This document shows, in pieces, positions 4,470 to 51,779 of a stretch of 64,000 bases of DNA (positions are counted from its first letter, which is position 1; the number at the start of each line of letters is the position of its first letter). Position numbers and translations under genes: made by a program. Where the stretch lies: the NCBI GenBank assembly GCA_026388655.1, contig JAPLJI010000004.1, positions 1,543-65,542 of the forward strand, in the 5' to 3' direction. Under the pieces are notes generated by a model. That model worked only from the letters and a program-made list of their open reading frames with translations. It did no database searches and was not told the origin of the DNA. The DNA comes from Pseudomonadota bacterium (lineage in GTDB: Bacteria; Desulfobacterota; JAPLJL01).

Positions 4470-4560
4470 GTAGTTGCCCGATTTATTTATCCCGACATCG
4501 GGAGGGATCGGGCTCTGAAGGATTTTTTTCAGACCGAGCCTCATAAATGAGGCAACTACA
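4470..4560. repeat. REP-like palindromic elements in inverted pair (gtagttgcccgatttatttatcccgac ... gaggcaactac)
   Basis: GTAG-initiated palindromic units with a CCGATTnATCGG core. The same family recurs at 5044-5130, 5591-5638, 14004-14099, 25311-25409, 46340-46370 and 51927-51981. Confidence 0.7.
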
Positions 4561-4868: not shown

Positions 4869-4984
4869 ACGAACGCAACGAAACCCGTTGTTGTTGTTCT
4901 GGTTCGTCGGGTTGTTGTTGTTCCGATTGGATGCGCGCAGGTTGTTGGTGTTGTTGTTCCAGCTCCCGCCGCGCAAGACCCGGT
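4869..4984 (-). other. DGR-type template repeat (TR): AAC-codon-rich 116-nt copy of the 3' end of the FGE-domain gene
   Basis: Minus-strand translation ...YNRVLRGGSWNNNTNNLRASNRNNNNPTNQNNNNGFRCVR* parallels the C-terminus of the 5683-6726 protein. It differs from 5686-5801 only at TR adenines, at about 17 sites. It has no upstream start codon and no ORF context. Confidence 0.8.
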
Positions 4985-5043
4985 TGTATCCGGGCCCGCC
5001 CCCTTTCAATCATGACCGTCATTCCTAGATTGACCGTTGTTTC

Positions 5044-16398: not shown

Positions 16399-16854
16399 TT
16401 ACCCATGTTTGGGTTTCCAATCGTAAGGAACCTTGTCCGTGAAAGGATCCTCCCGGTACTCATCCGGTCCGTCGTATTTGTATACCTCGGTGGGACAATT
16501 CAGCATCAGGGCTTCCTTCCCTCCGACCGCGCAGAAACCATGCCACACCAAGTGGGGAATCTTGACCAGGATCGGGTTCTTCTCCCCGACGAAATATTCG
16601 TTGATTTCCTTGTAGGTTGAAGAATCCTTTCGGTTGTCAAAAAGAACCAGCTTGGCCATCCCCCGGACGACGGTAATAAAATCGGTTTGTACCTTGTGGT
16701 AATGCCAGGCCTTGATCATGCCGGGATAAGCCATGGTGACATAAACCTGCCCGAACCGAACAAATAAGGAATCATCATTCCGCAGGATTTCCATCAACCA
16801 GCCCCGCTCGTCCGGGATCACCCTTAATTTTTTCGTTTCCACTCCCTGGATCAT
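16399..16854 (-). CDS. rmlC: dTDP-4-dehydrorhamnose 3,5-epimerase
   Basis: 151 aa cupin fold with RmlC motifs (RGWLMEI, HYHK). Confidence 0.85.
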   Translation of the reverse strand: MIQGVETKKLRVIPDERGWLMEILRNDDSLFVRFGQVYVTMAYPGMIKAWHYHKVQTDFITVVRGMAKLVLFDNRKDSSTYKEINEYFVGEKNPILVKIPHLVWHGFCAVGGKEALMLNCPTEVYKYDGPDEYREDPFTDKVPYDWKPKHG

Positions 16855-16919
16855 TTCACCTCCCTCTATTCCTCCATTAGAAATTCGGCATTAGAAATTA
16901 GACATTGGATATTAGATAT

Positions 16920-17654
16920 TTACTTAAATTTATTCCCTATTTTCTTCTCCGCCACCAGGTTGGTCGCCCGCCGGAGCGAATCGAACGTCCCCGCGTCGGT
17001 CCACCAGCCTCTTAAAATACTGAAAGACAGCTCTCCCCACTTCAAATAATGGTTGTTTACGTCCGTGATCTCCAGTTCTCCCCGGCCGGATGGCTTCAAG
17101 GTTTTGATAATGTCAAACACCCGGCAATCGTAAAAATAAATCCCGATCACCGCGAAATTGGAAGGCGGCCGCTTCGGCTTCTCCAGGATCTGTTTCACCT
17201 TTCCCTTGACGACCTCCGCCACCCCGAACCTTTCCGGGTCCGGCACTTCCTTCAGCAGGATCTTGGCCCCTTTTTTCTGGCGCTTATATTCCTGGACCGC
17301 CGGTTTGATGCTTCCCTCGATGATATTATCCCCCAGAAACACGCACAGGGGCTCGCCCGCGCAGAAATACTCCGCCAGCCGCAGGGCGTCCGCGATCCCG
17401 CCCTCGCCTTCCTGGTAGGTGTAATTCAAATGCTTCAGCCCGAACTCGCTCCCATTCCCCAGGAGCCGCAGGAAATCCCCGGCGTGCGGTCCGCCGGTCA
17501 CGATCAGGATATCGGTTATCCCCGCCTGCACCAGCGATTGGAGCGGATAATAAATCATCGGCTTGTCGTAAACCGGCAAGAGATGCTTGTTGGTAATCTT
17601 GGTCAAGGGACTCATCCGGGTGCCCAGCCCGCCGGCCAGAATTACGCCTTTCAT
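16920..17654 (-). CDS. rmlA: Glucose-1-phosphate thymidylyltransferase (short form)
   Basis: 244 aa, MKGVILAGGLGTRMSPLT... nucleotidyltransferase signature, in the rmlACBD context. Confidence 0.8.
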   Translation of the reverse strand: MKGVILAGGLGTRMSPLTKITNKHLLPVYDKPMIYYPLQSLVQAGITDILIVTGGPHAGDFLRLLGNGSEFGLKHLNYTYQEGEGGIADALRLAEYFCAGEPLCVFLGDNIIEGSIKPAVQEYKRQKKGAKILLKEVPDPERFGVAEVVKGKVKQILEKPKRPPSNFAVIGIYFYDCRVFDIIKTLKPSGRGELEITDVNNHYLKWGELSFSILRGWWTDAGTFDSLRRATNLVAEKKIGNKFK

Positions 17655-29032: not shown

Positions 29033-30472
29033 TCATCTCCCCCATTTTCCCCCTTTGATCTTCTCCATCTCTTCCTTGATCTTTTTAGCATCGGGCGATT
29101 CCGGATCGTAAAATTCCAGAGCCTTATGAAAATGAAACCTGGCGTTTTCCAAGTCCCCGATCAGAAAATAACTCCGGCCCAGGTAATAATGAGCCTGCCC
29201 ATATTTTTCCATCTCGCCGTAAACAATGCCCAGCTCATAGCAGGCATCCACCAGGTCGTGATCCAGCGCGATCGCGCTTTCCAGGGCTTTGATCGCCGGT
29301 TCAGGTTTCTTGGCTTCATGGTAAGCCTGCCCCAAGGCTAAAAATAAACTTTTGTTCTTGGAATCTAGCTCGGTGGCCTGGCTGAAGCTTGCCGCGGCGG
29401 AATCGAAATCACCCTTTGGGAGGTAGACGTTTCCAAGCTCCCAGAGAATCTGCGCGTTCGGTCCGGACAAATCCAGGGCCTTACCGAGTTCAGCCAGCGC
29501 CTCGCCCCACATCTTCTGCCGCTGGTAAAGAAGCCCCAATCCGAAATGCAGATCCGGATTTTTAGGATCACTCTTCAACTTTTCATCAAAATAACCGCGG
29601 GCCACGTTAATCTCTTTATATTCCGCGATCAATTTGGCCTGGATCAGCTTCAGCCGGTCGGAACCAACCAGATTTATTGCCGCCGGGGAAGCGGGTGGAG
29701 ACAGGCTTTCCAGGTAACCGATCCTCTGGATCAGGGGCGGGTGGGTCTCGAGATAGGGAGCCAGGGTTCCGCTCTCGATCCCTTCTTCCTTCACCAGCCG
29801 TCCCAGAAAGCGGATGATCCCGTGCGGGTCGTAGCCGGCCCGGCTCAAATAGCCGATCCCGTACTGGTCAGCCTCCTCTTCATCCAACCGGGTGTATCCG
29901 AGCGCCACGCTTTCCACCCCGGCGATGGTCCCGGCGATAATGGCCTGGCCCGCTTGCGGATTCGGAACCATCATCCCGGCCATGATCCCGGCAATGGTGG
30001 GCAGGGCCATCCCCTGCTGCTGCTGGATCATCCGGGCGATATGGCGTCGGGCCACGTGGGCGATTTCATGACTCAGAACCCCAGCGAGCTCGGATTCATT
30101 ATTAGCCTCGCCGGCCAATCCGGCGGTAATAAAAATCTGCCCGGCCGGCCCCGCAAAGGCATTGATCCGGGGATCGGCCAGGATGTAAAAATGAAAGGGA
30201 AACGGCTGTTCCTGGGCCTGGACGGAGATTCGCTGGCCGATGGCGTCAAGATAGCCGGTGACAAAAGGATCATCGATAAATTTCACCGTTCTTTTAAGCT
30301 CGAATAAAAACATCTCACCCAGGCGTCCTTCCTCGGCCGGGCTGGGAAGAAAAATGCGGTTAAAGGGGCTGTCCTCCCGGATCCGCCAGAAGCAGCCGGC
30401 CAAAATACAATTGATAAAGATGAGTGAAAAGTAAAAAGGAAAAAGTAAAAAGGCTTTTCTTTTCTTATACAC
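29033..30472 (-). CDS. M48-family Zn-metalloprotease with C-terminal TPR repeats (BepA/YfgC-like)
   Basis: 479 aa, N-terminal signal/TM segment, HEIAH zinc motif, several TPR-like repeats in the C-terminal half. Confidence 0.8.
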   Translation of the reverse strand: MYKKRKAFLLFPFYFSLIFINCILAGCFWRIREDSPFNRIFLPSPAEEGRLGEMFLFELKRTVKFIDDPFVTGYLDAIGQRISVQAQEQPFPFHFYILADPRINAFAGPAGQIFITAGLAGEANNESELAGVLSHEIAHVARRHIARMIQQQQGMALPTIAGIMAGMMVPNPQAGQAIIAGTIAGVESVALGYTRLDEEEADQYGIGYLSRAGYDPHGIIRFLGRLVKEEGIESGTLAPYLETHPPLIQRIGYLESLSPPASPAAINLVGSDRLKLIQAKLIAEYKEINVARGYFDEKLKSDPKNPDLHFGLGLLYQRQKMWGEALAELGKALDLSGPNAQILWELGNVYLPKGDFDSAAASFSQATELDSKNKSLFLALGQAYHEAKKPEPAIKALESAIALDHDLVDACYELGIVYGEMEKYGQAHYYLGRSYFLIGDLENARFHFHKALEFYDPESPDAKKIKEEMEKIKGGKWGR

Positions 30473-30693
30473 AGCGTCTTAAGTAATTGCGCATTAATCG
30501 TCATTCCCGTCCCGTCATCGGCGGGAGGAATCCAGAAAAACAATCTGGATTCCGGGTCAAGCCCGGAATGACAAGGATTTTTGACATACACGCATAATTG
30601 TTTTGTTATTTATAATCATATCTAAATTACTCTTTGCTCTTTTTCCCTATGCGCTATGCGCTTTGCTTCTTGCTCTTTGCTCCTTGCCCCTGA

Positions 30694-33568: not shown

Positions 33569-34060
33569 CTATTCCGGGCTTCCGCTCCCCGGTTCCTGCG
33601 TCGCCTTCCGGGCCCGATCCACCATCGTGTCGTAACTGCCCCGGACGCTTCTCTCGACTTGATTGAGTATTTTCTTGGGGAAAGAAAGCTCGCGCTTGGT
33701 GTAATAGTTGTACACCCGGTCAAACTGGTATATCCCCAGGTTTACCGGGATGGAATAATCGATGGAGACCTCGAGGTATTCCCGATTCGGTCCCCACGCG
33801 ATTTTGATAATGTCATCGCTTAAGTTCACGCCATTGGCCGCGGCCTGGTCCGCAATCTCCTTTTCCAACTGGGCATCGCTCTTGTTCATTCCTTCGAGGG
33901 TAATATTCCCCACCGCGGTTTCAAACTTCCCGGCCTGCGTGGAAGATCCTACCATCTGAACCACCACGAAAATAATCGCGGCCGCCACCGCGACAAAGAT
34001 TATGATGCCGATAAGGGCGGAGCCATTTTCCTTCCCGATTCCCATATTTCGCATGCTCAT
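33569..34060 (-). CDS. Small membrane-anchored protein (DUF4845-like)
   Basis: 163 aa with one N-terminal TM helix followed by a soluble domain. Confidence 0.5.
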   Translation of the reverse strand: MSMRNMGIGKENGSALIGIIIFVAVAAAIIFVVVQMVGSSTQAGKFETAVGNITLEGMNKSDAQLEKEIADQAAANGVNLSDDIIKIAWGPNREYLEVSIDYSIPVNLGIYQFDRVYNYYTKRELSFPKKILNQVERSVRGSYDTMVDRARKATQEPGSGSPE

Positions 34061-34363
34061 AATTTAATCGAATTCCGCCATTTTGCCAACTTTGAACCCC
34101 ATTGAAAATTTACCATTTGTTTTTTTCAATAGGGTTCAAGGGTTCGAGGGTCCAAGGGAAAAATTTAAATTCAGCTCTGGATTCCTGCTTTGGCAGGAAT
34201 GACCTTATTTTTTTCATTCGTCAATCGTCATTCGTCAATCGTCAATCCTTTTTAACTCGAAACCCAAAACTCACAACTCGAAACTGTTATTACCCTTCGA
34301 CTCCTCGGCCCCTTGGACCCTAGAACCCTTGGACCCTGTTATAATTAATAGTTAGGGCTGGTC

Positions 34364-34741
34364 GGGCGGCCGCTCCGACGTCCGGGCAACCGGGCTCGGG
34401 GAGGAAAGTCCGGACTCCATAGGGCTGGGTGCCCGCTAACGACGGGTCAGGGTAACCCCAAATGGGGTAAACCTGAAGGAAAGTGCCACAGAAAACATAC
34501 CGCCCTGAGAGCAATCGAGGGGTAAGGGTGAAAAGGCGAGGTAAGAGCTCACCGCCCCGAAGGTAACTTCGGGGGCAGGGTAAACCCCACCCGGAGCAAG
34601 GCCAAATAAGGGAGCGTTTGAGGGTGGCCCGCCCGATGCTCCCGGGTAGGTTGCTTGAGGCCCCGGGTAACCGGGGTCCCAGAGAAATGGCCGCCGTTCC
34701 GCCTTAGGCGGGATACAGAATCCGGCTTATAGACCAGCCCC
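34364..34741 (+). ncRNA. rnpB: RNase P RNA, bacterial type A
   Basis: Contains GGAAAGTCCGGACTCCATAGGGC, the P4 region, AAGTGCCACAGAAAACATACCGCC, and a P1 pairing between gggcuggucg at the 5' end and agaccagccc at the 3' end. About 378 nt. Confidence 0.9.
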
Positions 34742-34874
34742 CTTTATTAATACTGAGCCCAGCGCTGAGAGCAAAGCGCATGGAGCACGGAGCATAGAGC
34801 AAAGAGCGGAGAATGAATTACCCCGCCCTCGGACCAGAAAACCCGCAAGCCGCGACTCAATCAATTCGAATTTT

Positions 34875-36434
34875 TTAGTAAATCAGCTGCCGCAGGAATC
34901 CCTGGCAGATGCCCTTAGCGACCACCCGCCCGGACATGGCCGAAAAGACCACCCCTCCCGGCCAGACGGAGTAATGCCCCGCGTTGAACAGGTTTTTAAT
35001 CGGGGTGCGGAAATTGACGTATTTGTCCTTCAATGGGCTCTGGAAGGAATCGTAGGTCCAGCCCATGATCGCCCCTTCCTCGTTCAGGGTCCAGCGCGAC
35101 ATCGACCGGGGCGTGGCCAGCTCCTTATACACCACCCTCTTCGCCAGCCCCGGGATGATGTACTCGGTCTTCCGGATGATATCTTCCAGGACCTTCTGCT
35201 TGAGCTCCCGGTATTCCGGGCTCCGGGCCATGGGATCTGCGGAGCCGGTCCCCCAGCCGTTCCGCCAGTGGTAGGAGGTGAAAACCTGGACGACCAGGGA
35301 GCTTTTACCCGGGGGGGCCAGATGGGGAAGGTCGAGGGAGGGCGCGCTGATAAAGGACCAGCCCTTGTTGTGGGCCTCCGGGTCGTAGATGTCCCGGGCC
35401 GCGGTTTCATAGGTGCGCCAGTAAATGGTGTGGTTGGTCTTCATATATTTGCGCAATTCCCCGGCGTCCATATCCAGCCCGAGGAAAGCCGAGCTGACCG
35501 CGGGGGTAAGCTGGCCGGCGGTAAAGATCTGCCGCTCCCGGTGATCCCATTCTTCCGGCCGGTCCAGCATGGTGTTGATCAGCCGCTTGAGGTTGCCGGC
35601 GTTGATGAAATAGTCGGCCTGGAAACGCTCCTTCCCGGAGGTCTCGACTTCGGTCGCAACCTTTCCCGAGGTAATCACCTTGTCCACGGTGGACTTGAAG
35701 CGGATCTCCCCGCCCCGCTCCCGGTAGGCGTCGGCCAGCTTGTTCATCAATCCCTGGAGGCCGGCCCGAGGATACCAGTAATCTTCGGTGAAGGTGTACC
35801 AGAAGATGTAATGCATCATCAGCGGCACGTTTTTGAGACTGCTTTCCCCGCAGAGGTAGAGCAGGCGCGGCTCGTCGGCGAACATCTCCAGGGCCTTTTC
35901 TTCGCCGGTGGTCTTCATCATCTCCCGGCCTTTCCGGACCATGAAACCGGCCCGGGACATCATCCGCAGGTTGGCGCGCACCTTCTCCCAGCCGTCCACC
36001 ACAAAGGGCTGGGGGCCGCCCCCGAACATCTTTCTCATGCTGTTGCAGATCGGCACGATGTAATCGAACCACTGGTCGACCCCGCGGGTTGAGCCGGGAA
36101 AGGCTTTTTTAAAGTCATCCCGCATCTGCCCGTATTCCAGGAAGGGGCAGTCGAGGTCGGGCGTGGCCCAGCGGAAGCGGGCCCGGATCCACTCGCCCGG
36201 GTCGTAGAGCCCGAGCTCCTTGAGGATGGGGAAGATGATCCCCACGTTCTCGGTTGACTGGTCGCCGCAGTCGAAGTAGAACCCCTGGCGCCAGATGCCG
36301 GACATGTTCCCCCCCACCTGGTGGCCGTGCTCGAGGATCAGGGAGCGCTTTCCCAGCTTCTGCAGGTGGAGGCCGGCGATGAGCCCGGCGATTCCGCCGC
36401 CAATAACGATGACGTCGTATTTATTGGAGGACAT
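34875..36434 (-). CDS. Phytoene-desaturase (CrtI)-family FAD-dependent oxidoreductase
   Basis: 519 aa, dinucleotide-binding motif DVIVIGGGIAGLIAG. Confidence 0.8.
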   Translation of the reverse strand: MSSNKYDVIVIGGGIAGLIAGLHLQKLGKRSLILEHGHQVGGNMSGIWRQGFYFDCGDQSTENVGIIFPILKELGLYDPGEWIRARFRWATPDLDCPFLEYGQMRDDFKKAFPGSTRGVDQWFDYIVPICNSMRKMFGGGPQPFVVDGWEKVRANLRMMSRAGFMVRKGREMMKTTGEEKALEMFADEPRLLYLCGESSLKNVPLMMHYIFWYTFTEDYWYPRAGLQGLMNKLADAYRERGGEIRFKSTVDKVITSGKVATEVETSGKERFQADYFINAGNLKRLINTMLDRPEEWDHRERQIFTAGQLTPAVSSAFLGLDMDAGELRKYMKTNHTIYWRTYETAARDIYDPEAHNKGWSFISAPSLDLPHLAPPGKSSLVVQVFTSYHWRNGWGTGSADPMARSPEYRELKQKVLEDIIRKTEYIIPGLAKRVVYKELATPRSMSRWTLNEEGAIMGWTYDSFQSPLKDKYVNFRTPIKNLFNAGHYSVWPGGVVFSAMSGRVVAKGICQGFLRQLIY

Positions 36435-36634
36435 GGATTCTCTCCTTTAACTGATCAGCCCGAAAATTACAGTTGAACCACAATTTTCGTCTGAAAGACC
36501 GCCAACAAAATTGTGGGCGGGGTTAACCCCACTGCTACGAAGGGCGGCCCTTCGGGCAAATTCCTCAAACTGAGGAATTTGGGTTGGCCGGGGTTTTCGC
36601 GCCGGTGCCCGGCTGGTCCGCTGAGTGCTGACCA

Positions 36635-37450
36635 TCAGCTGATCTCGACAAACGGTTCAATCCGCTTCTGGAAATTCTCCTTCAGCCGGGGATTGTCGAG
36701 TTTCAGTTTGATCGCCTTTTGGGGGCACAGGCGGGCGCAGCGGCCGCAGGCCCGGCATCTTTCGCTGATCACCGAGCGGCCGTCCTTGATGGTAATCGCC
36801 CCGATATAGCATCTCTCCGCGCAGGTGCCGCAGCCGACACATTCATCGGTCACCTCGACCGATAATCCTTCCAGGGGGATAAATATCTTGTCCAGGTGTT
36901 CGGTGGGTAGCCATCTCATGTTACGGGTGATGCAACAGCATTCGCAGCAAAAACAAACCGTCAGAAGCTTGCCCCGGTCCTTGATGCCGTAGATGAAATT
37001 GTCCACCCGGGCCTTGCCAAGCACGGGAACCAGGTCGGCCTTCATCGCTTTTTCCAGATGCTGGAGGGCTTCTTTTTCCGAGGCCATGTGGCTTAAGCTC
37101 TGGGGCACCTCCCGGGCGGATTCCCCCATGAGCAAACAGCCGATCTCCTCGGGGTAATGTTGGCATTCCCAGGCCTTGCGGCAACCGCAGAAATCCACAA
37201 TCGCCCGGTACTTGGATTTGCGGATGTAATCCGCCACCAGCTCCGGGGGCAGAGGGGTATTGGCAGTCCTCTCGATATCCTGATTGACCGGAAGCCAGCT
37301 GATATTGGTCTTATCGGTTCGGGTCCAGGGATGGTGGTCACGCAGGACAGGAAGAGAACCCACCCGGAAAATCGCCCGCATGAACCGCATCCCCATCCGC
37401 ATCATGGGAGGCCAGGTGGATTGCTCGACAAAAGCTTTCTTTCTGGGCAT
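36635..37450 (-). CDS. Cys-rich Fe-S protein with two ferredoxin-type [4Fe-4S] motifs and an unusual CFCCECCC motif (paralogue 1)
   Basis: 271 aa with CxxCxxCxxxC x2 (CVGCGTCAERC, CRACGRCARLCP) plus DFCGCRKAWECQHYP and CFCCECCC motifs. Confidence 0.65.
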   Translation of the reverse strand: MPRKKAFVEQSTWPPMMRMGMRFMRAIFRVGSLPVLRDHHPWTRTDKTNISWLPVNQDIERTANTPLPPELVADYIRKSKYRAIVDFCGCRKAWECQHYPEEIGCLLMGESAREVPQSLSHMASEKEALQHLEKAMKADLVPVLGKARVDNFIYGIKDRGKLLTVCFCCECCCITRNMRWLPTEHLDKIFIPLEGLSVEVTDECVGCGTCAERCYIGAITIKDGRSVISERCRACGRCARLCPQKAIKLKLDNPRLKENFQKRIEPFVEIS

Positions 37451-37534
37451 GTTAACCTTCGTTGACCGCTTGAGGATCGTTCCGATAGTTTAAAACATTC
37501 CCAGGCGAATTTTGTATATCGGCTTCCTCTGCGG

Positions 37535-39151
37535 CTACTTTTTTTCCCTCGCCAGGATCATCTTCGCGGTTTCCAGGCCGGAGAGGAGGACCGCGGACTG
37601 ACCGCCTCCCGGGAAGGTCCAGGCCCCGGCGAGATAGAGATTGTTGATCGGGGTCTTCTGCGGCAGCCGCTTGAACATGCTCTGGTTGATACTGTATTCC
37701 CAGCCGAAGATCGTGCCTTTCGGATTCAAGGTGTACTTTTCCATGGTTTTGGGGGTTCCCACTTCCATGATTTCAATCGAGGATTTGAGGCTGGGAACGA
37801 TTTTCACGCCCCGCTCGATAAACTTCTGCGCCACCTCTTCCTTGAGGGCTTTGTATTTATCGTAACCCTGGCTCAAGAGCCAGTCACCCTTATAGTCATA
37901 AGGCATCATCGAAACCAGGGCGATCACGTTCTTGCCCTTCGGGGCGTCGGTCGGATCCGCCATGGTGTAATTAATCACACCGAACATGGCTTTCTCCGGG
38001 ATGCCTTCGCGGAAGTATCGGAAGGTCTCCGCCTGGTCCCAACCGGGGTTGACGAAATAAGAATGGATTCCGGGGGGGAATTCACCGGTTAAATCCTTGT
38101 TCACCCCCAGGTAGACGGCGTAAGCGGAGGCCCCGATTTTCATGGTTTCGAGCTTCTGCAAATAGTCCTTGGGCAGGTACTCACGGCCGATCAGCTTGAA
38201 AAAGGTATCGGGCGCGTTGGCATTCGAGACCACATACCGGCAGGGGAATTCCTTCCCGTCCTTGGTCTGGACCGCCGTGGCCAATCCGTCTTTCATCACG
38301 ATCTTGGTAACCAGGGTGTTGAGCAGGACCTTGCCCCCGTGCTCTTGGACGACCTCGGCCAGGGCTTTCGTCACTGCCTGCGACCCGCCCTCGAAATAGT
38401 AGAACCCGTGAAAGTGATAACTGATCCACATCATCGCGAAGAGCATGCCGGAAACATTGTCCGGATCAATGCCGGTGTAGGCCATCAGCTGGGTAAAGAG
38501 CGTGAAGAGCTTCGGGTCCTTGATATATTTACCGAGCGTGTCGGTGCTGTTCCCTGTCCAAAACTTACCGAGGATCCAGAGCTTGCAGGGACTGGTTAGA
38601 ATTTTGAGAAGCGAGCCCGCCACATTCTTTTTATCCTGGAGGTTCATGAGATTCATCATGATGTAGTCTATGGACTGAAGCTCCTTCCAGAGCTTGTCTA
38701 TCCCCTTGGACTCGCCGGGGAATTTTTCCTTGAGGAGCTGCCGGTATTTCTCGGCATCGGCGGGGATGTCGAAGTAGGTATCCGGGAAAACCGACCTGTA
38801 GGCGGGATCGGTCTTGTGGAGTTTGACCTTTTTATCGATCCCGAGATCGTCAAACGCCTCGATCCCCATCCCATCCATGGCGTGGAGCGAGACCTCAAAC
38901 CGGTAATCCCCCCGCTCAAAGGCACTCATGTAGCCGCCGACTTTGTCGTGCTGTTCGATGACCAGGACCTTCAGGCCTCCCAGGGCGAGCTTGGCGGCCG
39001 CCGCCATTCCCCCTCCCCCCGCGCCGACCACCACCGCGTCATAACCGTCCGGGCTGAGCTTGGCCTTGACCGGTCCCTGCGAGCAGGAATACCCGGCGAA
39101 AACCAGGAATAAAAAAGCCAGCACCCAAGAAATCTTCTTTGCTCTCTTCAT
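37535..39151 (-). CDS. CrtI-family FAD-dependent oxidoreductase, probable lipoprotein
   Basis: 538 aa with a signal peptide and lipobox-like FAGYSC. FAD motif DAVVVGAGGGGMAAA. Confidence 0.8.
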   Translation of the reverse strand: MKRAKKISWVLAFLFLVFAGYSCSQGPVKAKLSPDGYDAVVVGAGGGGMAAAAKLALGGLKVLVIEQHDKVGGYMSAFERGDYRFEVSLHAMDGMGIEAFDDLGIDKKVKLHKTDPAYRSVFPDTYFDIPADAEKYRQLLKEKFPGESKGIDKLWKELQSIDYIMMNLMNLQDKKNVAGSLLKILTSPCKLWILGKFWTGNSTDTLGKYIKDPKLFTLFTQLMAYTGIDPDNVSGMLFAMMWISYHFHGFYYFEGGSQAVTKALAEVVQEHGGKVLLNTLVTKIVMKDGLATAVQTKDGKEFPCRYVVSNANAPDTFFKLIGREYLPKDYLQKLETMKIGASAYAVYLGVNKDLTGEFPPGIHSYFVNPGWDQAETFRYFREGIPEKAMFGVINYTMADPTDAPKGKNVIALVSMMPYDYKGDWLLSQGYDKYKALKEEVAQKFIERGVKIVPSLKSSIEIMEVGTPKTMEKYTLNPKGTIFGWEYSINQSMFKRLPQKTPINNLYLAGAWTFPGGGQSAVLLSGLETAKMILAREKK

Positions 39152-39344
39152 TTTACCCTCCTTAGATAGTGTGGCTGCTTTTAACGATTTTCTTCCAGTA
39201 TAACCATATTTAAGTTTGCATAGAATTTTATGTTTATCAAGAAAAGAGAATCTTCCTTGAAAAATACATTATTTTGCGATTATTTTACATATTGCGCTTA
39301 TTTTACATTTCTGATAACTTGGAAAACAGAAAAAATTTCAATAT

Positions 39345-40217
39345 ATGATTCCGGTAAAATTTAAAAACATTCTCTCTTCCCCCGAAGATAAGTTTCGCCT
39401 CACCCGGCTTTTTATTCCCCCGGGCAGCCAGATCTACGGCCATTCGCACGACTTTGCCGAAGTTAACTGGATGGACAGCGGGGAGGCTTTGCACGTGGTC
39501 AATGGGGAATCGGTTTTAATGAGGCCCAACCACCTAGTTATGATCCGGAAGAAAGATAAACACGAATTCCGGAATACCGGCGAAAGCCCTTTTATCCTGG
39601 TCAGCCTCGCGTTTCGAGAGGAAATCCTCGGGGATATCCGCGAACGGTATTTCCCCGACAATCCATCATTTTTCGGGGGCGATTCCAAGCTGCCCAGGAT
39701 GGTGGAACTCGACGGCAACCTCCGCCGTCATGCCGATGAACTCGTGGACCTGATGCTCTACTCCCCGCGCACCCAGTTTTACCTCGACCTGCTGCTTTTG
39801 AATCTGCTTTTCCTCATCGAAAACCAGCCTTCCCGGGAAATCCCGCCTTTATGTCCCGACTGGCTGAAGCGGGCTTACGGCACGATCCAGAATCCGGAAT
39901 TGTTAACCGGCGGGGTAAAAAACTTTCAAAAACTTTGCGGCAAATCCGCCACCCATGTATCCCGGGCCTGCCAGAAGTGGTTTAAGGCCACCCCCTCGGA
40001 GGTGGTCAACCGCTTCCGGATGGACTTTGCCGCCCGGGAGCTGGCCGGAACCGAACGCCCGATCGTCGAAATCTGCCTGGGCATGGGTTTCGATTCCCTG
40101 AGCCATTTCTACAGCCTGTTTAAAAAACGCCACGGCATTTCCCCCCGAGGATACCGCCTCCGGAACCGGGGGGGAACCTTTGCCGGAGAGATAAATAATG
40201 GATATCCCATTCATTGA
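39345..40217 (+). CDS. AraC-family transcriptional regulator (N-terminal cupin, C-terminal HTH_AraC)
   Basis: 290 aa with two AraC-type helix-turn-helix units in the C-terminal 100 residues. Confidence 0.8.
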   Translation: MIPVKFKNILSSPEDKFRLTRLFIPPGSQIYGHSHDFAEVNWMDSGEALHVVNGESVLMRPNHLVMIRKKDKHEFRNTGESPFILVSLAFREEILGDIRERYFPDNPSFFGGDSKLPRMVELDGNLRRHADELVDLMLYSPRTQFYLDLLLLNLLFLIENQPSREIPPLCPDWLKRAYGTIQNPELLTGGVKNFQKLCGKSATHVSRACQKWFKATPSEVVNRFRMDFAARELAGTERPIVEICLGMGFDSLSHFYSLFKKRHGISPRGYRLRNRGGTFAGEINNGYPIH

Positions 40218-40264
40218 AAATTCCGTTCGTAGTATTTTGCCTTGAATCGGGGAAAGGTTTAAAA

Positions 40265-41140
40265 ATGAAAGAGAAATTAAAAAGAAAATGGTTTCCCGGG
40301 ATATTTGATTTCATCAATTTTAAGCCCCGGAATCCCCGTCTCCTCAAATATGTTTTTTACCCGCCGGGGATGAGGTTCGGCTTCAAGATGCTGGCCCGGA
40401 TGTTCAAGGCAGCGAACCTGCCGCTGATCAATCGGATCCATCCCTGGGTGAGTAATGAAAAAAACCGTCTGTTTATTATTCCGGTGCAGGAGACGCTCGA
40501 ACTCGGGGAGAGCGTGACCGTGCCCTACCAGCTGGTGGAGACTTTCATCGAGAGGTCCTCCTACCGTGTGATCATCGATTTCTGTGCCTGCCGGAAGGCC
40601 GGCGAATGCCAGCATTATCCCAGTGACTTGGGCTGCTTGATCATGGGCGAGGATTCCCGGAGGATTCCCACCACCTGGGCCCGCCCGGCTTCAAAGGAGG
40701 AGGCCCGGGAGCACCTCCAGAAAGGAATCAAGGTCGGCTTGCCGGTTTTCGCCGGCAAGCCCCGGGTGGATAACTATATCTTCGGGGTGCCGGATATGGG
40801 CCGGATGTTCAGCGTCTGCTTCTGCTGCGAGTGCTGCTGCCTCGGGAACACGATCAACCGTTACCTGCCCCCGGAGAAGCTGAGAATCCAGTACAATCGG
40901 CTTCCGGGCCTCGAGATCTTGGTGGATCAGGAAAAGTGCACGGGGTGCGGTACCTGCGTCGAAACCTGCCCCCTCGGACTTATCAGGATGGTGGATAAAA
41001 AGCCGCTGATCCCCGACGACTGCCAGGGCTGCGGCCGCTGCGCCAAGTACTGCCCCAACAAGGCGATTCACCTGAAGCTCGATAACCCCGGCTACCTGGA
41101 AAGCGCCATTAAAAACCTGGAGTCAGTGATTAAAATTTAG
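40265..41140 (+). CDS. Cys-rich Fe-S protein, CFCCECCC family (paralogue 2)
   Basis: Start set to ATG 40265 (GGAAAGG RBS; ORF 40214 begins with TTG). Motifs DFCACRKAGECQHYP, CFCCECCC, CTGCGTCVETCP, CQGCGRCAKYCP. Confidence 0.65.
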   Translation: MKEKLKRKWFPGIFDFINFKPRNPRLLKYVFYPPGMRFGFKMLARMFKAANLPLINRIHPWVSNEKNRLFIIPVQETLELGESVTVPYQLVETFIERSSYRVIIDFCACRKAGECQHYPSDLGCLIMGEDSRRIPTTWARPASKEEAREHLQKGIKVGLPVFAGKPRVDNYIFGVPDMGRMFSVCFCCECCCLGNTINRYLPPEKLRIQYNRLPGLEILVDQEKCTGCGTCVETCPLGLIRMVDKKPLIPDDCQGCGRCAKYCPNKAIHLKLDNPGYLESAIKNLESVIKI

Positions 41141-41223
41141 TGCCGGAGTTGTTGGCGGGGCCCCGGATGTTTCCGTGATGCCCCTGCCCGGCGGATCCAT
41201 ATTTTCAGGAGAGGAGAAAGAAA

Positions 41224-42054
41224 ATGGATGCTGTCCCTTTGACCAAGTTGGACGAGAAGATAGCCAAGTTCTCCAAGAATCGAACCGTTCTGCGGACCAT
41301 GCTGGCGGTGATCAGGTCCATCTTCCGGGTGATCTCCCTCCCGGGAATCCGCGACCGGCATTCCTGGGTCCACCCGGAAAAGAACATGTCCACCGTCCTG
41401 CCGATTAATAAAGAACTGAAACAAAACGGCGTTCTGGTTCCCGTCCCGATCGTGTCCGAGCTGATTAATAAATCATCCTACCGCATGATCATGAATGTCT
41501 GCGGCTGCCGCCAGGCCTACGACTGTAAAAACCATTCCGCCGAGATCGGGTGTTTGTTCATGGGAGAAAGCGTCCGGAAAATCCTCCGCGGGCTCGGCCG
41601 ACCGGTCTCCCGGGAAGAGGCGATCGCGCACCTGCACCGGGCGATCGACAACGGCCTGGTCCCCGCCGTCGGCAAAGCGAATGTTGACACCTTTCTTTAC
41701 CAGCTCCCGAGCGACGGAAAATTCGTCAGCGTGTGCTTCTGCTGCCACTGCTGCTGCCTGGGCGGCGCCTTCAAGAACCTCCCTGCCGAGCACTTCAACC
41801 GCATCTCCCCCCGGCTCGAAGGACTGAAGATCGAAGTGACCGACACGTGCACCGGCTGCGGGACCTGTGTGGAATATTGCCTCTACGAGGCCATTACGAT
41901 TGAGGACGGCCGGGCCGTTCACAGCGAGATCTGCCGAGGCTGCGGCCGCTGCGCGACTTACTGCCCCGCGAACGCCGTGAGCATCTCCCTAAATAATTCC
42001 CATTTTAAGGATGATGTTCTCAGTCGAATCAGCCGTTATGGGGATGTGAGTTGA
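41224..42054 (+). CDS. Cys-rich Fe-S protein, CFCCHCCC family (paralogue 3)
   Basis: 276 aa with the same architecture (CGCRQAYDCKNH, CFCCHCCC, two ferredoxin motifs). GGAGAGGAG RBS. Confidence 0.65.
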   Translation: MDAVPLTKLDEKIAKFSKNRTVLRTMLAVIRSIFRVISLPGIRDRHSWVHPEKNMSTVLPINKELKQNGVLVPVPIVSELINKSSYRMIMNVCGCRQAYDCKNHSAEIGCLFMGESVRKILRGLGRPVSREEAIAHLHRAIDNGLVPAVGKANVDTFLYQLPSDGKFVSVCFCCHCCCLGGAFKNLPAEHFNRISPRLEGLKIEVTDTCTGCGTCVEYCLYEAITIEDGRAVHSEICRGCGRCATYCPANAVSISLNNSHFKDDVLSRISRYGDVS

Positions 42055-42126
42055 AAAATCGGTTTTTTCCCTTCTTTATCCATTTGCTCATAATTTGTGG
42101 TCATAAATTCTGATTTTTGATTTATT

Positions 42127-43008
42127 TCACCTCCACTCGATGCTGGGCCGGCGGCGCTCCACCAGGCGCCGGAATTTCACCTCCTGGTATCCCAGGGTCA
42201 TGACCCCAAAGCAGCGATGATCTTTAGGGAGTCCCAGAAATTTCTTCAGCTTGGGATCGTACTTGGCGGAATTTTCGATGAATCCGTTAAAGCAGACACC
42301 CACCCCCAGGCTGTGGGCCATCAGGGCGCAATAATTAATGGCGGCGACGCAGTTGAAAGCCGAGCTGGAATCCCAGGCGGGAGCATGGACCAGGATTACC
42401 GCCCGCGCGTTCCAGAAGGCCCGGTCCACCCCGCTCTTGGTCGACTCGATCACGGACTTGGCCGCCGGGATGTAATCCTGCAAGAACTTGACGGTCTTGC
42501 GCCCGAGGATGAAGCCGGCGTAGAAGGCGACGATCGGGTTGCTCATCATCCCGAAGGCTTTCTCCATGCCGCTGACCGTAATCTCTCTGAGTTTGACGAT
42601 TTCCCGGGGATCGGTGAAAACCAGGTAATGAACGTTCTGGCTGTTGCTTCCGGTCGGGGCGTACCTCCCGGCCTCGATGATTTTTTCCAGGACCTCCCGG
42701 GGAACCGGCTCCGGCCGGTAAAAGCGCACCGAACGGCGCTCCCGGAGGAGCTTTAAAACAGCCTCGGGGTTAACGGCCGGACCGGGGCCCGTGGTTAGAT
42801 GGCTCTCCACCTTGGCTTCCGGATGGAAAATGGCCTCGGTGGGGCAGACCGCTCCGCAATGCCCGCAGGCGACGCAAAACTCCCTTCGCTCGACGGCGGC
42901 GATCTTGTTTTGCATCCCCAATACCAGAGCGGGACAATACTTCACGCAGAGGCCGCAACCAGTGCATTTCCCGCTGATTATCTCCGGCGGGGGTGGGATT
43001 CGTTTCAT
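42127..43008 (-). CDS. Ferredoxin-nitroreductase fusion protein (N-terminal 2x[4Fe-4S] plus nitroreductase-fold FMN domain)
   Basis: 293 aa, CTGCGLCVKYCP and CVACGHCGAVCP motifs, then a nitroreductase-family region (RRSVRFY..., RYAPTGSNSQ). Confidence 0.75.
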   Translation of the reverse strand: MKRIPPPPEIISGKCTGCGLCVKYCPALVLGMQNKIAAVERREFCVACGHCGAVCPTEAIFHPEAKVESHLTTGPGPAVNPEAVLKLLRERRSVRFYRPEPVPREVLEKIIEAGRYAPTGSNSQNVHYLVFTDPREIVKLREITVSGMEKAFGMMSNPIVAFYAGFILGRKTVKFLQDYIPAAKSVIESTKSGVDRAFWNARAVILVHAPAWDSSSAFNCVAAINYCALMAHSLGVGVCFNGFIENSAKYDPKLKKFLGLPKDHRCFGVMTLGYQEVKFRRLVERRRPSIEWR

Positions 43009-43363: not shown

Positions 43364-44089
43364 TCAGGTGAGCAGCTTTAGCGCGAGGGATAAGGTTTCC
43401 TCGGCCTCGGATTCGCTGGCCACCCCCAAGGCCACGCCCGCCACCTTTTGGCTGGCTACCCAGGGAAGCGATTCGGTGGGCGGGATTTTTCCCGCCCCCA
43501 GAATCTTCTTGGCCACGATCGGGCATTTGAATTTTTTGATCTCCTCCAGAAGCTCGGGGAGATTCCCAATCATTATCCCCCGCGGGTTCAGGGGAACCAT
43601 GAGCATCTGGAAATCCAATTTGCTTTCCACCAGCGCCCGGAGGGTGGGAACAGCGCGGTGAACCGCCAGCCCGGGTATAATCCCGGCCTTCCGAATCAGC
43701 GAAAGGTGTCCGGAGATCATCTCGAAATCGAGATGATCCGTTTCCATCCCGTGCAAAAGAGCGACCCGGGCGTTTACGCGAAGCAAAAGCTCGATCCCGC
43801 TTTCCACCTCGTTGGGGACCAGGGTCCCCACCACCACCGGCTCGATTCCCTCCTGTTTCCTGGCGTTTTCAATCGCCTCGATGACCCGGGGGAAAGCCAC
43901 CGCCTGAATTCCCCTTACCCCGATTTTCCAGGCCTTAAGAATCAGATCGACCATATTCTCGGGATGCTCGTAAAAATGCTCGAAATATTCGGGCGCCCGG
44001 GAGCCGAACTGCCCCGCCCCGAGGAAAGGAGAAGTCCCCAGAAGCACCCGGGGAATCTGTTGTTTGGAAATCTGAAAAAATGCCGTCAT
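43364..44089 (-). CDS. Hypothetical protein (possibly TIM-barrel like)
   Basis: 241-aa ORF with good codon periodicity. No family recognised with confidence. Confidence 0.4.
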   Translation of the reverse strand: MTAFFQISKQQIPRVLLGTSPFLGAGQFGSRAPEYFEHFYEHPENMVDLILKAWKIGVRGIQAVAFPRVIEAIENARKQEGIEPVVVGTLVPNEVESGIELLLRVNARVALLHGMETDHLDFEMISGHLSLIRKAGIIPGLAVHRAVPTLRALVESKLDFQMLMVPLNPRGIMIGNLPELLEEIKKFKCPIVAKKILGAGKIPPTESLPWVASQKVAGVALGVASESEAEETLSLALKLLT

Positions 44090-46459: not shown

Positions 46460-48397
46460 TCAGATTTTTCTCCCGACGTCAAACCCTTCCCGGATCGCCT
46501 GGAGGACATCCCGGGGCGACGCGCAATCGCCGATCCGGTAGATCTCGGGAATCTTATCCATAAGTTTCCAGAAAAGCCCGTCGTTCTGCCGGTTGGCCTG
46601 GATGACGATCAGGCTGTCGATCTTTTCGATGTTCTGGGTGAGTTGGGTGAAATTGTTGCGCACAATAAGAGTGTCCCCGGTGAATTCCAGGGCCTCGCTC
46701 GACTCCATAAAGGTCACTCCCTTGGTCAGCATCCGCATAAACATGATGGGGATCTCGGTGATTCCCAAGAACATGCCGGGGTAAGGGAGGGGCGTCACCA
46801 GAGTAACTTTCTTTTCCATTCCGGCGAGGTGGTCGGCGAGGGTAACCGCCTGCTGTTTGAAGACGGTGTCCACGATCACGACGTGCTCGCCCAGAGGGAC
46901 GTTCTCCCACAAAACCTGGACCAAGTGATGCACGTTGGGAAGATCTCCGCCGGGAAATTCGGGTTTGGTAGGAAGGGACCCGGTCGCCAGGACGACGGCA
47001 TCGGGCGATTCCCCGAGGATGACACGCTCGTCCGCTTCTTTCCCCAGAACGATTTTCACTCCGAGCTTGTCGAGTTGGAACCGGCGCCATCGGATAAGCT
47101 CGTTGAACTCGCCCCGCTCCGGGATCCGGGTGATGATATTCACCTGCCCCCCCAGGTCCTTCTCCTTTTCGAAGAGGACGACCTGGTGCCCCCGCTCCGC
47201 CGCCGTGCGGGCGGCTTCCATGCCGGCCGGACCGCCGCCGACCACGACGACTTTTTTCTGTTTTCGCGCCGGAGCGAACGTGGTTTCCGCCTCCCGGCCC
47301 ACCCGGGGGTTCTGCGTACAGGTGATGGATTTGAGCCGGAATCCCCTTCCAATGCATCCCTGGACGCAGGCGATGCAGTGGCGGATCTCGTCGAGCTTTC
47401 CCGCCTGGGCTTTTTTCGAAATCTCCGGGTCGGCGATCTGGGCCCGGGTCATCACCACCAGGTCGGCGTGGCCATCCTCGAGGATCTTCTCCGCCTGGAC
47501 CGGGTCGTTGATCCGGACCGAGGCGAAGACGGGGATTTTCTCCACCGCTCTCCGGATCGCGGAATGAAAGGGAATGAAGAATCCCAGGGGAATATACCCG
47601 GGGCCGATGACCAGCCCGTAATGCGCGAACTGGGAGCCGGCCGAACAATTGATGTAGTTCACCTTCCCGGTGGCTTCGAGTGTCCGGGCCACCTCCTGCA
47701 TTTTTTCGTTGTCCATGCCCCCGGGGTGAAGATCGTCGCCGCTGATGCGGAACCCGAGGGCCATTTCTGGACCGATTTCCTGGCGGACCCGGTCGATAAG
47801 TTCGAACGCGAACCGCATCGGCTCGCCGTATTTGTCTTTTCGCTGGTTTCCCCAAGGCGACCAGGACTGCTGGATCAGGTAGCCGTGCGTCCCGTGGAGT
47901 TCCACCCCATCGAGTCCTGCCTCGCGAGCCGTCCGGGCGAATACCGTGAAGCATTCAATGATGTCCCCAATTTCCTTCTGGGTGAGGACCATCGGCCTTT
48001 CCCGGGTGGAAAAAGAAGGTATGTCCGAGAAGGATTCCAGCGGGGTTAAGTTCTGCGTGCTGTCCCACTCTTTGCCGTGGTGAAAAAGCTGGATGAAAAC
48101 TTTTGTCCCGTGCTCGTGAAGGGTCTCCGACATCCGGCGCAGGCGGGGGAGGAGCTCATCCGGGGGGAGGAGCGGCTCGTTGCCGAAGATCAAGTTGGAA
48201 GGATGCACCGGGCAGGCCCCGATGACAATCAGCCCGCATCCGCCCTCGGCGCGGGCCCGCATATATTCGATATATCTGTCTGCGGGAAGGTTGCGTTGAA
48301 AAAATCCGAAACCGGTTTCGTGACTGCTCATCACGATCCGGTTTTTTACCTCTACCGGACCCAACTTGATCGGCGAAAAGAGATGGTCGAATTTCAT
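46460..48397 (-). CDS. Old-Yellow-Enzyme-family NADH:flavin oxidoreductase fused to an FAD/NAD(P)-binding domain (2,4-dienoyl-CoA reductase-like)
   Basis: 645 aa with an N-terminal OYE TIM-barrel (HGTHGYLIQQ) and a C-terminal pyridine-nucleotide-disulfide-like domain (VVVVGGGPAGMEAA). Confidence 0.85.
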   Translation of the reverse strand: MKFDHLFSPIKLGPVEVKNRIVMSSHETGFGFFQRNLPADRYIEYMRARAEGGCGLIVIGACPVHPSNLIFGNEPLLPPDELLPRLRRMSETLHEHGTKVFIQLFHHGKEWDSTQNLTPLESFSDIPSFSTRERPMVLTQKEIGDIIECFTVFARTAREAGLDGVELHGTHGYLIQQSWSPWGNQRKDKYGEPMRFAFELIDRVRQEIGPEMALGFRISGDDLHPGGMDNEKMQEVARTLEATGKVNYINCSAGSQFAHYGLVIGPGYIPLGFFIPFHSAIRRAVEKIPVFASVRINDPVQAEKILEDGHADLVVMTRAQIADPEISKKAQAGKLDEIRHCIACVQGCIGRGFRLKSITCTQNPRVGREAETTFAPARKQKKVVVVGGGPAGMEAARTAAERGHQVVLFEKEKDLGGQVNIITRIPERGEFNELIRWRRFQLDKLGVKIVLGKEADERVILGESPDAVVLATGSLPTKPEFPGGDLPNVHHLVQVLWENVPLGEHVVIVDTVFKQQAVTLADHLAGMEKKVTLVTPLPYPGMFLGITEIPIMFMRMLTKGVTFMESSEALEFTGDTLIVRNNFTQLTQNIEKIDSLIVIQANRQNDGLFWKLMDKIPEIYRIGDCASPRDVLQAIREGFDVGRKI

Positions 48398-51031: not shown

Positions 51032-51106
51032 TTTAGCATTCTTGTAGGATGGATATAATAAATCAGCATATTAATTCCAATGCTTATTTACACGAGTTTA
51101 TCAACT

Positions 51107-51250
51107 GTCATTCCCGCGAAAGCGGGAATCCAGATCCTTTTTGTCATCCCCGCGAAAGCGGGAATCCAGATCCTTTTTGTCATCCCCGCGAAAGCGGGAA
51201 TCCAGATCCTTTTTGTCATCCCCGCGAAAGCGGGGATCCAGGAGTGGAAA
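51107..51250. repeat. Tandem array, 4 x 36 bp, of the palindromic unit GTCAT(T/C)CCCGCGAAAGCGGGAATCCAGATCCTTTTT
   Basis: Exact head-to-tail copies with no spacers. Each unit contains a tcccgc/gcggga stem. A related half-unit follows at 51250-51304. Confidence 0.9.
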
Positions 51251-51332
51251 CTGGATTCCCCCGGATCAAGTCCGGGGCAGGCTTAGTCAAGCCCGGAATG
51301 ACAATCATTCTTTGCTGGATGGGGAAAGGAAA

Positions 51333-51779
51333 ATGAACTGCTTTCAATGCGGGGCGGAAATGACACCCGAGACCAAATTCTGTCCGAAGTGCGGCGTGAA
51401 AAACATGGAAAGAAGGATTTTACACCCCACCTGCCCCCGGTGCCGGAACGAATTTTCGGAGGGAACCAAGTTCTGTCCCCAGGATGGGTTGGAACTCCGG
51501 GATAAAGACGAGATCGCGTACGCGGATCTCCCCGGGGCTTACCAGAACGCCTTCAAGAAATTCAATCAAAAGGGATTCCGGCTGACCTGGAGCTGGATGG
51601 GTTTCTTCTTTGGCGGGATCTGGTACCTGGTCAAGGGAATGTGGGCCAAGGGGCTGATCATACTCTGCCTTACTGTGATCACCGCGTTTCACGCCTTCCC
51701 CTTCACCTGGCTTTACTGCGTCTTCTTCGGCAAATACGACTATTACCTTCTCAAGGTCAAGGACAAACAGCTCTGGTAA
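51333..51779 (+). CDS. Zinc-ribbon plus DUF2628-like small membrane protein
   Basis: Start reassigned to ATG 51333 (GGGAAAGGAAA RBS). Two CxxC-x-CxxC zinc-ribbon pairs precede a hydrophobic C-terminal domain. The upstream 64 codons of ORF 51141 merely translate the tandem repeat. Confidence 0.6.
   Translation: MNCFQCGAEMTPETKFCPKCGVKNMERRILHPTCPRCRNEFSEGTKFCPQDGLELRDKDEIAYADLPGAYQNAFKKFNQKGFRLTWSWMGFFFGGIWYLVKGMWAKGLIILCLTVITAFHAFPFTWLYCVFFGKYDYYLLKVKDKQLW

Follow-up and report, generated by a model that had tools for sequence, protein, structure and literature searches.

Cysteine-rich proteins resembling the N-terminal domain of the putative isoprene reductase IsrA, encoded in a strain-variable gene island with CrtI-like flavoproteins

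Gene content of the locus

The window analysed here is a stretch of 64,000 nucleotides from a bacterium of the Desulfobacterota (positions 1,543 to 65,542 of contig JAPLJI010000004.1, GenBank assembly GCA_026388655.1). It carries an island in which three paralogous cysteine-rich iron-sulfur (Fe-S) proteins (B, E and F) are encoded together with two FAD flavoproteins of the CrtI superfamily (A and C), a regulator of the AraC/XylS type (D), a ferredoxin-nitroreductase fusion (G) and a conserved protein whose family was not recognised (H). Profile comparisons suggest that B, E and F are related to the domain presumed to be catalytic in IsrA, a putative isoprene reductase from Acetobacterium wieringae.

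On the minus strand lie A (34875-36434, 519 amino acids, aa), B (36635-37450, 271 aa) and C (37535-39151, 538 aa), followed on the plus strand by D (39345-40217, 290 aa), E (40265-41140, 291 aa) and F (41224-42054, 276 aa), and again on the minus strand by G (42127-43008, 293 aa) and H (43364-44089, 241 aa). All nine open reading frames (ORFs) of a preliminary description of this DNA, made from its letters alone, were confirmed in the ORF list with the same coordinates, and its picture of a redox island stands, CrtI-superfamily flavoproteins, AraC regulator and Fer4-nitroreductase all being present. For E, an alternative TTG start exists at 40214; the start at 40265 is the most likely one, the orthologue in the related locus L061 being likewise 291 aa long.

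The cysteine-rich proteins B, E and F

The three paralogues share 43% pairwise identity over their full length and score 342-417 bits against the hidden Markov model of their family. Each consists of about 195 N-terminal residues with ten conserved cysteines (the IsrA-like domain discussed below spans residues ~45-198 of B) and a 2[4Fe-4S] ferredoxin domain, which bears out the conserved N-terminal segment and shared Cys motifs reported at first. The motifs themselves need some correction. DFCxCR-x4-C-x-HYP, attributed to all three proteins, is exact in B and E, while F has NVCGCRQAYDCKNHS; the six-Cys run CFCC(E/H)CCC is indeed common to all, as CFCCECCC in B and E and CFCCHCCC in F; and two CxxCxxCxxxC ferredoxin motifs are present in every protein, the additional Pro claimed for both of them being found after the second only, in B and F. 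In an alignment of 62 homologues C88, C90, C96, C105, C166, C168, C169, C171 and C172 are invariant and C173 is kept in at least 90%, and the polar residues R91, E127, K146, R148, D150 and N151 are invariant or nearly so. The AlphaFold2 model of B (predicted local distance difference test, pLDDT, 93.7) shows an alpha/beta domain with the cysteines at strand ends, then a ferredoxin fold.

The N-terminal domain (N-domain) had been described as not assignable to any characterised family, and our searches agree. Matches of B, E and F in Pfam and NCBIfam are confined to the C-terminal ~50 residues and all belong to Fer4 families (PF00037 with 38.9-55.3 bits against a cut-off of 21.1 and PF12838 with more than 27 bits in all three proteins, at Pfam gathering thresholds). 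No match for the N-domain, and hence no DUF covering the CFCCxCCC region, was found in Pfam or NCBIfam, and none among PDB sequences or, using Foldseek, PDB folds. Searches of PDB sequences by phmmer with a single protein and by hmmsearch with the N-domain profile returned no relative of the N-domain, the top match (a Prp8 fragment, E 0.15) being judged a chance one. The model of B matched PDB structures by its ferredoxin part alone, and a model of the N-domain only (pLDDT 79.7) gave no match, its best hit having E 1.2 and probability 0.03. Among other candidates, the HdrB CCG, UPF0153 (CxxCxxCC) and DUF-type Cys-rich families were all absent from Pfam scans of the proteins. A likeness to FrhG and the small subunits of [NiFe]-hydrogenases extends to the overall layout (an alpha/beta Cys domain, then 2[4Fe-4S]), the length and the ferredoxin domains; it is otherwise unsupported, as Foldseek aligns 44-61 ferredoxin columns and nothing in the N-domain.

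A profile of the three N-domains, searched against 1.84 billion representative proteins, retrieved 388 clusters at 50% identity (E <= 0.001). Database names of homologues of B, E and F are '4Fe-4S binding protein', 'ferredoxin' and 'UDP-glucose 4-epimerase'. The last label, which comes from JGI and is attached to many family members, has probably been carried over from rare fusions of an SDR/epimerase domain to the Cys-rich and Fer4 domains (P0123; L079 8972-10732).

Relationship to IsrA

The relatives of B, E and F extend beyond what BLAST detects. Loci L047, L075 and L091 encode proteins of 367-420 aa that by BLAST share only the ferredoxin domain with the window type, and that carry the motifs CYCR...C...C and CNCCxC[CH]C. 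When the N-domain profile (A5) was compared by hhalign with a profile of this 368/420-aa subfamily (A8), the two matched at 98.3% (E 1.6e-14), and the 141 aligned columns take in both Cys motifs. Members of the ~368-aa subfamily consist of a domain resembling a winged helix-turn-helix (wHTH), the Cys-rich domain and 2[4Fe-4S], and occur in Dehalococcoidia, Thermodesulfobacteriota and others. They thus share the Cys-rich core and the ferredoxin domain with B, E and F and differ from them in the extra N-terminal domain of ~170 aa, in the form of the second motif (CNCC[GP]C[CH]C) and in the far larger size of the family, which comprises at least 2843 clusters at 90% identity as against 388 at 50% identity for the window type. 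The subfamily is named only generically ('4Fe-4S binding protein') and has no characterised member; in L047 and L075 it is found in tandem with the 271-aa type.

IsrA of A. wieringae ISORED-2 is a 901-aa protein whose first ~270 residues have no InterPro or CDD domain match and align with a 350-aa '4Fe-4S ferredoxin' (VUZ27135.1) of the same isr operon (Kronen et al. 2023, PMC10134865). In its ColabFold model six N-terminal cysteines lie close together, four of them as CxC pairs at 180/182 and 254/256, and the ferredoxin motif follows at residue 289; the Cys6 site ('cluster V') lies at the end of the predicted substrate tunnel and was proposed to be the active site, possibly containing nickel; most IsrA homologues are accompanied by HypA and HypB (PMC10134865). 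A tblastn search of plasmid records with the L091 protein returned a 925-aa gene of Subdoligranulum variabile that has the IsrA architecture, is flanked by HypB and HypA and matches the published description of IsrA clade 9 (PMC10134865). This protein stands in for A. wieringae IsrA in our comparisons, and the link to the latter is provided by published architecture, Cys positions and HypA/HypB context. Profile A8 matches its N-terminus at 99.6% (E 4.4e-24), and A5 matches it directly at 92.6% (E 4.5e-7, both by hhalign). The first CxC, second CxC and ferredoxin motifs begin at 180/254/289 in published IsrA, at 212/286/321 in the Subdoligranulum protein and at 88/166/204 in B, where the CxC pairs are 88/90 and 166/168 and the spacings 78 and 38. 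The core of the superfamily is a Cys-rich alpha/beta domain with CxCR...C...C, a second CxC-containing motif 71-78 residues further on, and 2[4Fe-4S].

Taken together, the A5-A8, A8-IsrA-like and A5-IsrA-like matches and the conserved spacing place B, E and F, as short stand-alone proteins, among the relatives of the domain presumed to be catalytic in IsrA. They are relatives of this domain rather than IsrA orthologues, since at 271-291 aa they end after the 2[4Fe-4S] domain, without the fused Fer4_20 + Pyr_redox_2 (GltD/NfnB-like) NAD(P)H-FAD module and C-terminal Fer4 that bring IsrA to ~900 aa, and they also lack its wHTH-like leader of ~170 aa. Both kinds of protein have the same motif order, a Cys-rich domain with no InterPro or Pfam assignment, and strictly anaerobic hosts. 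In B, E and F, however, the conserved cysteines number ten, six of them in a run, as opposed to 6-7 in IsrA, and their neighbours are CrtI-like flavoproteins, an AraC regulator and a Fer4-nitroreductase instead of HypA and HypB. HypA does stand beside relatives of B, E and F in one locus (L075), as it does in IsrA operons.

The CrtI-like flavoproteins A and C

A and C had been called flavoproteins of the phytoene desaturase family. Both are recognised by Pfam Amino_oxidase (7.7e-16 for A, 1.6e-26 for C), and the two fall short of the NCBIfam crtI_fam model (TIGR02734; 108.2 and 200.4 bits against a cut-off of 238.1), as does C of carot_isom (201 bits, below cut-off); neither protein reaches the cut-off of any of the named CrtI subfamilies in NCBIfam. 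On these scores we regard them as members of the superfamily and not as CrtI proper. They are only 23% identical to each other. A has a classical GFxFDxG motif (G-F-Y-F-D-C-G-D), with no His at the position that is flavinylated in CtmAB, the limonene dehydrogenase discussed below. C has R-F-E-V-S-L-H-A, of which F85-x2-S88-L89-H90-A91 is invariant in its family; its possible likeness to covalently flavinylated enzymes was judged against the published motif G-F-[LR]-x-[NS]-[TL]-H-A.

C is predicted to be exported and may be lipid-anchored, and resembles CrtISO and RetSat; A, which has no signal peptide, is cytoplasmic. Most close homologues of C have a signal peptide with a lipobox-like Cys (L-P-S-C, F-L-A-C, T-G-C or similar), others an Ala-X-Ala type signal. 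The earlier designation of C as a lipoprotein has more backing in these homologues than in C itself, where the signal region (...VFAGYS-C) has a lipobox, G-Y-S-C, that departs from the canonical [LVI][ASTVI][GAS]C. The signal peptides in residues 1-25 of C and in its homologues are of the Sec type and non-twin-arginine, on FAD-binding enzymes that would have to obtain both FAD and a redox partner outside the cytoplasm. As an export signal is absent from A, B, E and F, C is probably located in a different compartment from the Fe-S proteins, and direct electron transfer between them is unlikely.

Regulator, nitroreductase fusion and flanking features

The AraC regulator noticed earlier is confirmed: D combines an N-terminal cupin sensor domain (Pfam AraC_binding, 36.3 bits, 5.4e-9; Cupin_2, 31.6 bits, 1.4e-7) with HTH_18 (65.3 bits, 6.2e-18), and is syntenic in L061, L067 and L093. 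The divergent intergenic region between C and D holds an 18-nucleotide (nt) direct repeat, TTGCGMTTATTTTACAT, in two tandem copies (39274-39308, found by TRF), laid out as TTGCGATTATTTTACAT A TTGCGCTTATTTTACAT. The repeat is unique in the window (2 occurrences against 0.11 expected), and the block is invariant in L061, L067 and L093 while the intergenic DNA flanking it diverges, so that it is a plausible candidate operator for D.

G is, as originally described, a ferredoxin-nitroreductase fusion, with a 2[4Fe-4S] domain (Pfam Fer4, 1.5e-10) joined to an FMN domain of the nitroreductase fold (Pfam Nitroreductase, 1.1e-29). Its PDB relatives are NAD(P)H nitroreductases, and we predict it to be an NAD(P)H-linked module for electron input. 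It is syntenic in L061 and L093, where orthologues of H adjoin it, and has a homologue in the L047 cluster. H matched nothing in Pfam, NCBIfam or PDB and is not significantly similar to the AKR-Fer4 proteins encoded in L075.

Immediately downstream of A, between this gene and one encoding 163 aa (33569-34060), the window contains a full-length bacterial RNase P RNA of class A (34354-34745, plus strand; 311.7 bits, E 1.3e-101). It was the sole match of the Rfam scan, which found neither a riboswitch nor a NiCo element, and a scan for promoters and terminators performed no better than chance. Beyond H, the minus strand encodes a 645-aa Fe-S flavoenzyme of the old yellow enzyme (OYE)/FadH type (46460-48397, Oxidored_FMN + Pyr_redox_2), sharing its architecture with 2,4-dienoyl-CoA and aryl-CoA reductases; of the NCBIfam models, mycofactocin-system OYE 2 fits it best, with 626 bits where the cut-off is 793. 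The gene has a syntenic counterpart in L093, and in L110 a C homologue likewise directly adjoins an OYE-like gene. Farther away, a 36-nt tandem repeat (51106-51241; 3.8 copies with 98% matches; unit TGTCATCCCCGCGAAAGCGGGAATCCAGATCCTTTT) contains a GC-rich hairpin and translates as a spurious repetitive ORF (51141-51779), and a similar-looking spurious ORF is found at 30283-30591.

Variation between closely related strains

The triplication of the Cys-rich protein, taken initially as a feature of the cluster, turned out not to be fixed when close relatives were compared with the window by blastn. B is present in the LacPavin metagenome-assembled genome (L011) and absent between C and A in L093, L094 and L061 (STA_72). 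The flanks of L093 and L094 are 98.6% identical to the window, the A gene only 93%; the absence of B amid such similar flanks, together with the divergence of A, suggests that the B-A segment was recombined or horizontally exchanged. Only ~114 bp separate C from A in the B-lacking contigs with 98.6% identical flanks (window 36435-37534; L093 11600-11715; L061 6987-7181). F is missing from STA_72, where E is directly followed by G with a gap of ~175 bp (window 41141-42126; L061 10809-10984).

E is the only paralogue found in all four related genomes (orthologues in L061, L067 and L093), and the conserved core of the island is C-A, D-E and G-H. Since B and F vary between close strains, they behave as modules subject to gain and loss and not obligate subunits of one complex.

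Genomic context of the family

Scanning one genome per species yielded 165 relatives of the window family, mostly in uncultured anaerobic Actinomycetota and Thermodesulfobacteriota, with one in Desulfatibacillum alkenivorans and up to six loci returned from single genomes. In the 80 loci kept for neighbour statistics (within 10 kb), CrtI-like genes are the commonest non-self neighbour family, being present in 17, several times in direct adjacency. The apparent top neighbour cluster was an antisense ORF of the family gene itself and was discarded, as was a 534-aa ORF in L061 that is antisense to the A orthologue. For the reverse comparison, 28 metagenomic or genomic loci with a C homologue and at least 3 kb of flank were used; three contain a member of the superfamily and four an A-like gene. 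The pairing with CrtI-like genes proposed in the preliminary description is therefore real and enriched but optional. A literature search on COG1233 proteins with 4Fe-4S proteins in anaerobes, or on phytoene or alkene in Desulfatibacillum, found nothing relevant.

Three of the loci are instructive. In L091 both A and C have orthologues (63% and 67%); a gene for a superfamily member of 367 aa precedes that of C by 81 bp, and an SCP2-like gene lies downstream. This locus also encodes, on the minus strand, two CrtI-like flavoproteins with a C-terminal Fer4_20 + Pyr_redox_2 (GltD/NfnB-like) NAD(P)H module (2104-4995 and 16524-17635; 963 aa and at least 1022 aa), besides DUF1302/DUF1329 outer-membrane proteins, an acyl-CoA dehydrogenase and an EFR1-like flavodoxin-ferredoxin. 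L075 (2-8308) and L047 (7136-15796) contain arrays of seven paralogues (four of the 271 type, two of the 368 type and one of the 420 type), accompanied by AKR-Fer4, SDR and CrtI-like genes. Among the array genes of L075 lie those for HypA, a HypB remnant and an SCP2 protein, and L047 adds LuxC/LuxE acyl-reductase genes and a Fer4-nitroreductase.

SDR domains are joined to the Cys-rich protein in P0123 and L079, and in a separate subfamily, also found in tandem arrays, one or two N-terminal domains resembling SCP2 are fused to the core (a weak but consistent likeness, with Pfam E 0.0016 and an SCP2 domain as the top PDB match, E 0.16). With SCP2-like domains fused to relatives or encoded next to them (L091, L075), the hydrophobic substrate suggested from the outset is plausible.

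Proposed function and alternative explanations

The explanation that we prefer, though tentatively, is that the island is controlled by its AraC-type regulator and serves the redox conversion, probably the hydrogenation, of a hydrophobic unsaturated substrate, with B, E and F as IsrA-type cluster modules. Low-potential electrons would enter these proteins through the ferredoxin domain, the likely donor being G (alternatively a general ferredoxin), which would take the part played in IsrA by the fused NAD(P)H/FAD/Fe-S (GltD-like) module. They would then pass to a special metal cluster held by 7-10 of the N-domain cysteines, where an alkene, a conjugated diene or an isoprenoid-like lipid could be reduced. 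A and C may handle the same class of compounds in neighbouring steps, as desaturase, isomerase or saturase, C outside and A inside the cytoplasm, and D would switch on both divergent operons via the tandem repeat. Observed here are the domain architecture, the chain of homology, the gene-context statistics, the differences between strains, the export signal in C and the conservation of the repeat; the metal content, the catalytic role, the direction of electron flow, the kind of substrate and what G does are inferred.

A catalytic or ligand-binding role is suggested by the conserved polar residues, the SDR and SCP2-like fusions, the adjacent SCP2-like genes and HypA in L075. Since the only relative studied so far is the suspected active-site domain of IsrA, it is more likely that B, E and F are enzymes with greasy, unsaturated substrates than that they simply carry electrons. 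The reductive direction is favoured by the ferredoxin domains of low-potential type and the GltD-like fusions of L091, and by the acceptor requirement of limonene dehydrogenase, an oxidative flavoenzyme of the CrtI superfamily that needs a high-potential acceptor and was judged unlikely in strongly reduced habitats (PMC12583861).

Several observations weigh against this explanation. The function of IsrA itself rests on proteogenomics only, no enzyme of the superfamily having been purified (PMC10134865), and biochemical characterisation was still absent from 2026 preprints. The direct alignment of A5 with the Subdoligranulum protein is remote (24% identity over 105 columns) and ends before the second Cys motif, and the ten cysteines of the N-domain may form either one site or two. 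HypA, HypB and other nickel-related genes were not found in the 64-kb window, and HypA occurs in just one (L075) of 87 family loci. As for context, few C homologues have a superfamily member nearby, the genes directly next to family members are of very mixed kinds (MgsA, acyl-CoA dehydrogenases, hydrolases, AMP-ligases, AraC and TetR regulators), and many copies stand alone.

If the N-domain merely held one or two additional ordinary Fe-S clusters, B, E and F would be dedicated multi-cluster ferredoxins, shuttling electrons to or from A, C and other flavoenzymes. We consider this somewhat unlikely. The classical 2[4Fe-4S] domain fits such a role, as do the enrichment of CrtI-like genes above all other neighbours and the frequency of acyl-CoA dehydrogenases and other flavoenzymes near family genes, and CtmAB with CtmE/CtmF offers a precedent for a flavoenzyme with a dedicated ferredoxin (PMC4109377). 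C, however, carries an export signal that the Fe-S proteins lack, and most of its homologues have no Cys-rich neighbour; fusion to SCP2-like or SDR domains is a trait of enzymes rather than of carriers; residues other than cysteines are conserved; and in IsrA-like proteins the homologous domain is the only module left for catalysis. For this last reason the phrase 'dedicated electron carriers', used when the cluster was first described, probably understates what these proteins do. The same CtmAB comparison raises the possibility that A and C form a heterodimer that acts anaerobically on the side chain of a terpene or sterol, as an allylic hydroxylase or a desaturase, with B, E and F taking up the electrons of an oxidative island. 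Like CtmAB limonene dehydrogenase and delta-24 sterol desaturase, which act anaerobically on hydrophobic isoprenoid substrates, A and C are two divergent COG1233-type flavoproteins encoded with Fe-S proteins (PMC4109377, PMC11061730), their low identity being comparable to the 27% between CtmA and CtmB (PMC4109377). The two genes are directly adjacent in L093, L094 and L061, both orthologues occur in the one L091 locus, and the invariant S-L-H-A of C resembles the covalent-flavin motif. This His motif is found in both Ctm subunits and here has a likeness in C only, and CtmE, unlike B, E and F, is a 2Fe-2S ferredoxin of the plant type that has a reductase of its own (PMC4109377, PMC11061730). 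C has a signal peptide and A has none, which makes a heterodimer unlikely, and C also differs in this from Ctm; an A-like gene accompanies few C homologues; and the oxidative Ctm reaction requires the high-potential acceptor mentioned above. Given the different localisation of A and C and the lack of the His motif in A, we hold the heterodimer to be improbable, and less likely than the ferredoxins.

Most improbable of all, in our estimate, is that the Cys-rich domain is a module for metal handling or sensing (nickel or iron storage, a cluster scaffold or redox sensing) outside any metabolic pathway. The very dense cysteines, with CFCCECCC recalling metallothionein-like runs, might suggest it, as might HypA adjacent in L075 and in IsrA operons and the wHTH-like domain of the 368-aa subfamily, a few members of which match the Pfam TrmB family. 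Yet the domain never occurs without a fused 2[4Fe-4S] domain for electron transfer and is modelled with confidence as a well-ordered alpha/beta fold, and its genes occur in multiple copies per genome within neighbourhoods of a catabolic type (acyl-CoA, SDR, AKR and CrtI-like genes).

Implications

Little is understood of the ways in which anaerobes reduce or otherwise attack alkenes without functional groups, among them isoprene, terpenes and polyenes. The only candidate enzyme, IsrA, is uncharacterised and putatively understood at best, and its presumed active-site domain has no family model and is undescribed in domain databases. What the window adds is a short architecture, a richer set of cysteine ligands, a different set of partners without HypA and HypB, and modularity at the level of strains. 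As this locus shows, the IsrA-type domain occurs in short stand-alone proteins as well. Its superfamily comprises thousands of proteins that bear no more specific label than 'ferredoxin' or '4Fe-4S binding protein', and the domain is repeatedly accompanied by CrtI-like flavoproteins and SCP2-like lipid carriers, and in the related locus L075 by HypA. The misleading label 'UDP-glucose 4-epimerase' can now be corrected.

B, E and F, of about 30 kDa, are small targets for metal analysis and structure determination, and the AraC regulator with its candidate operator offers a handle on the inducing substrate. A further-reaching proposal, which we regard as rather doubtful, is that the 10-Cys domain, its 368-aa relatives and IsrA make up a widespread class of Fe-S, possibly Ni-Fe-S, enzymes with a new type of metal cluster. 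In anoxic sediments they would add hydrogen to C=C bonds, unactivated or conjugated, in hydrocarbons, isoprenoids or lipids. The CFCC[EH]CCC cluster would then be one unseen in solved structures, and the island a modular, strain-variable toolkit deployed beside exported and cytoplasmic CrtI-like flavoenzymes.

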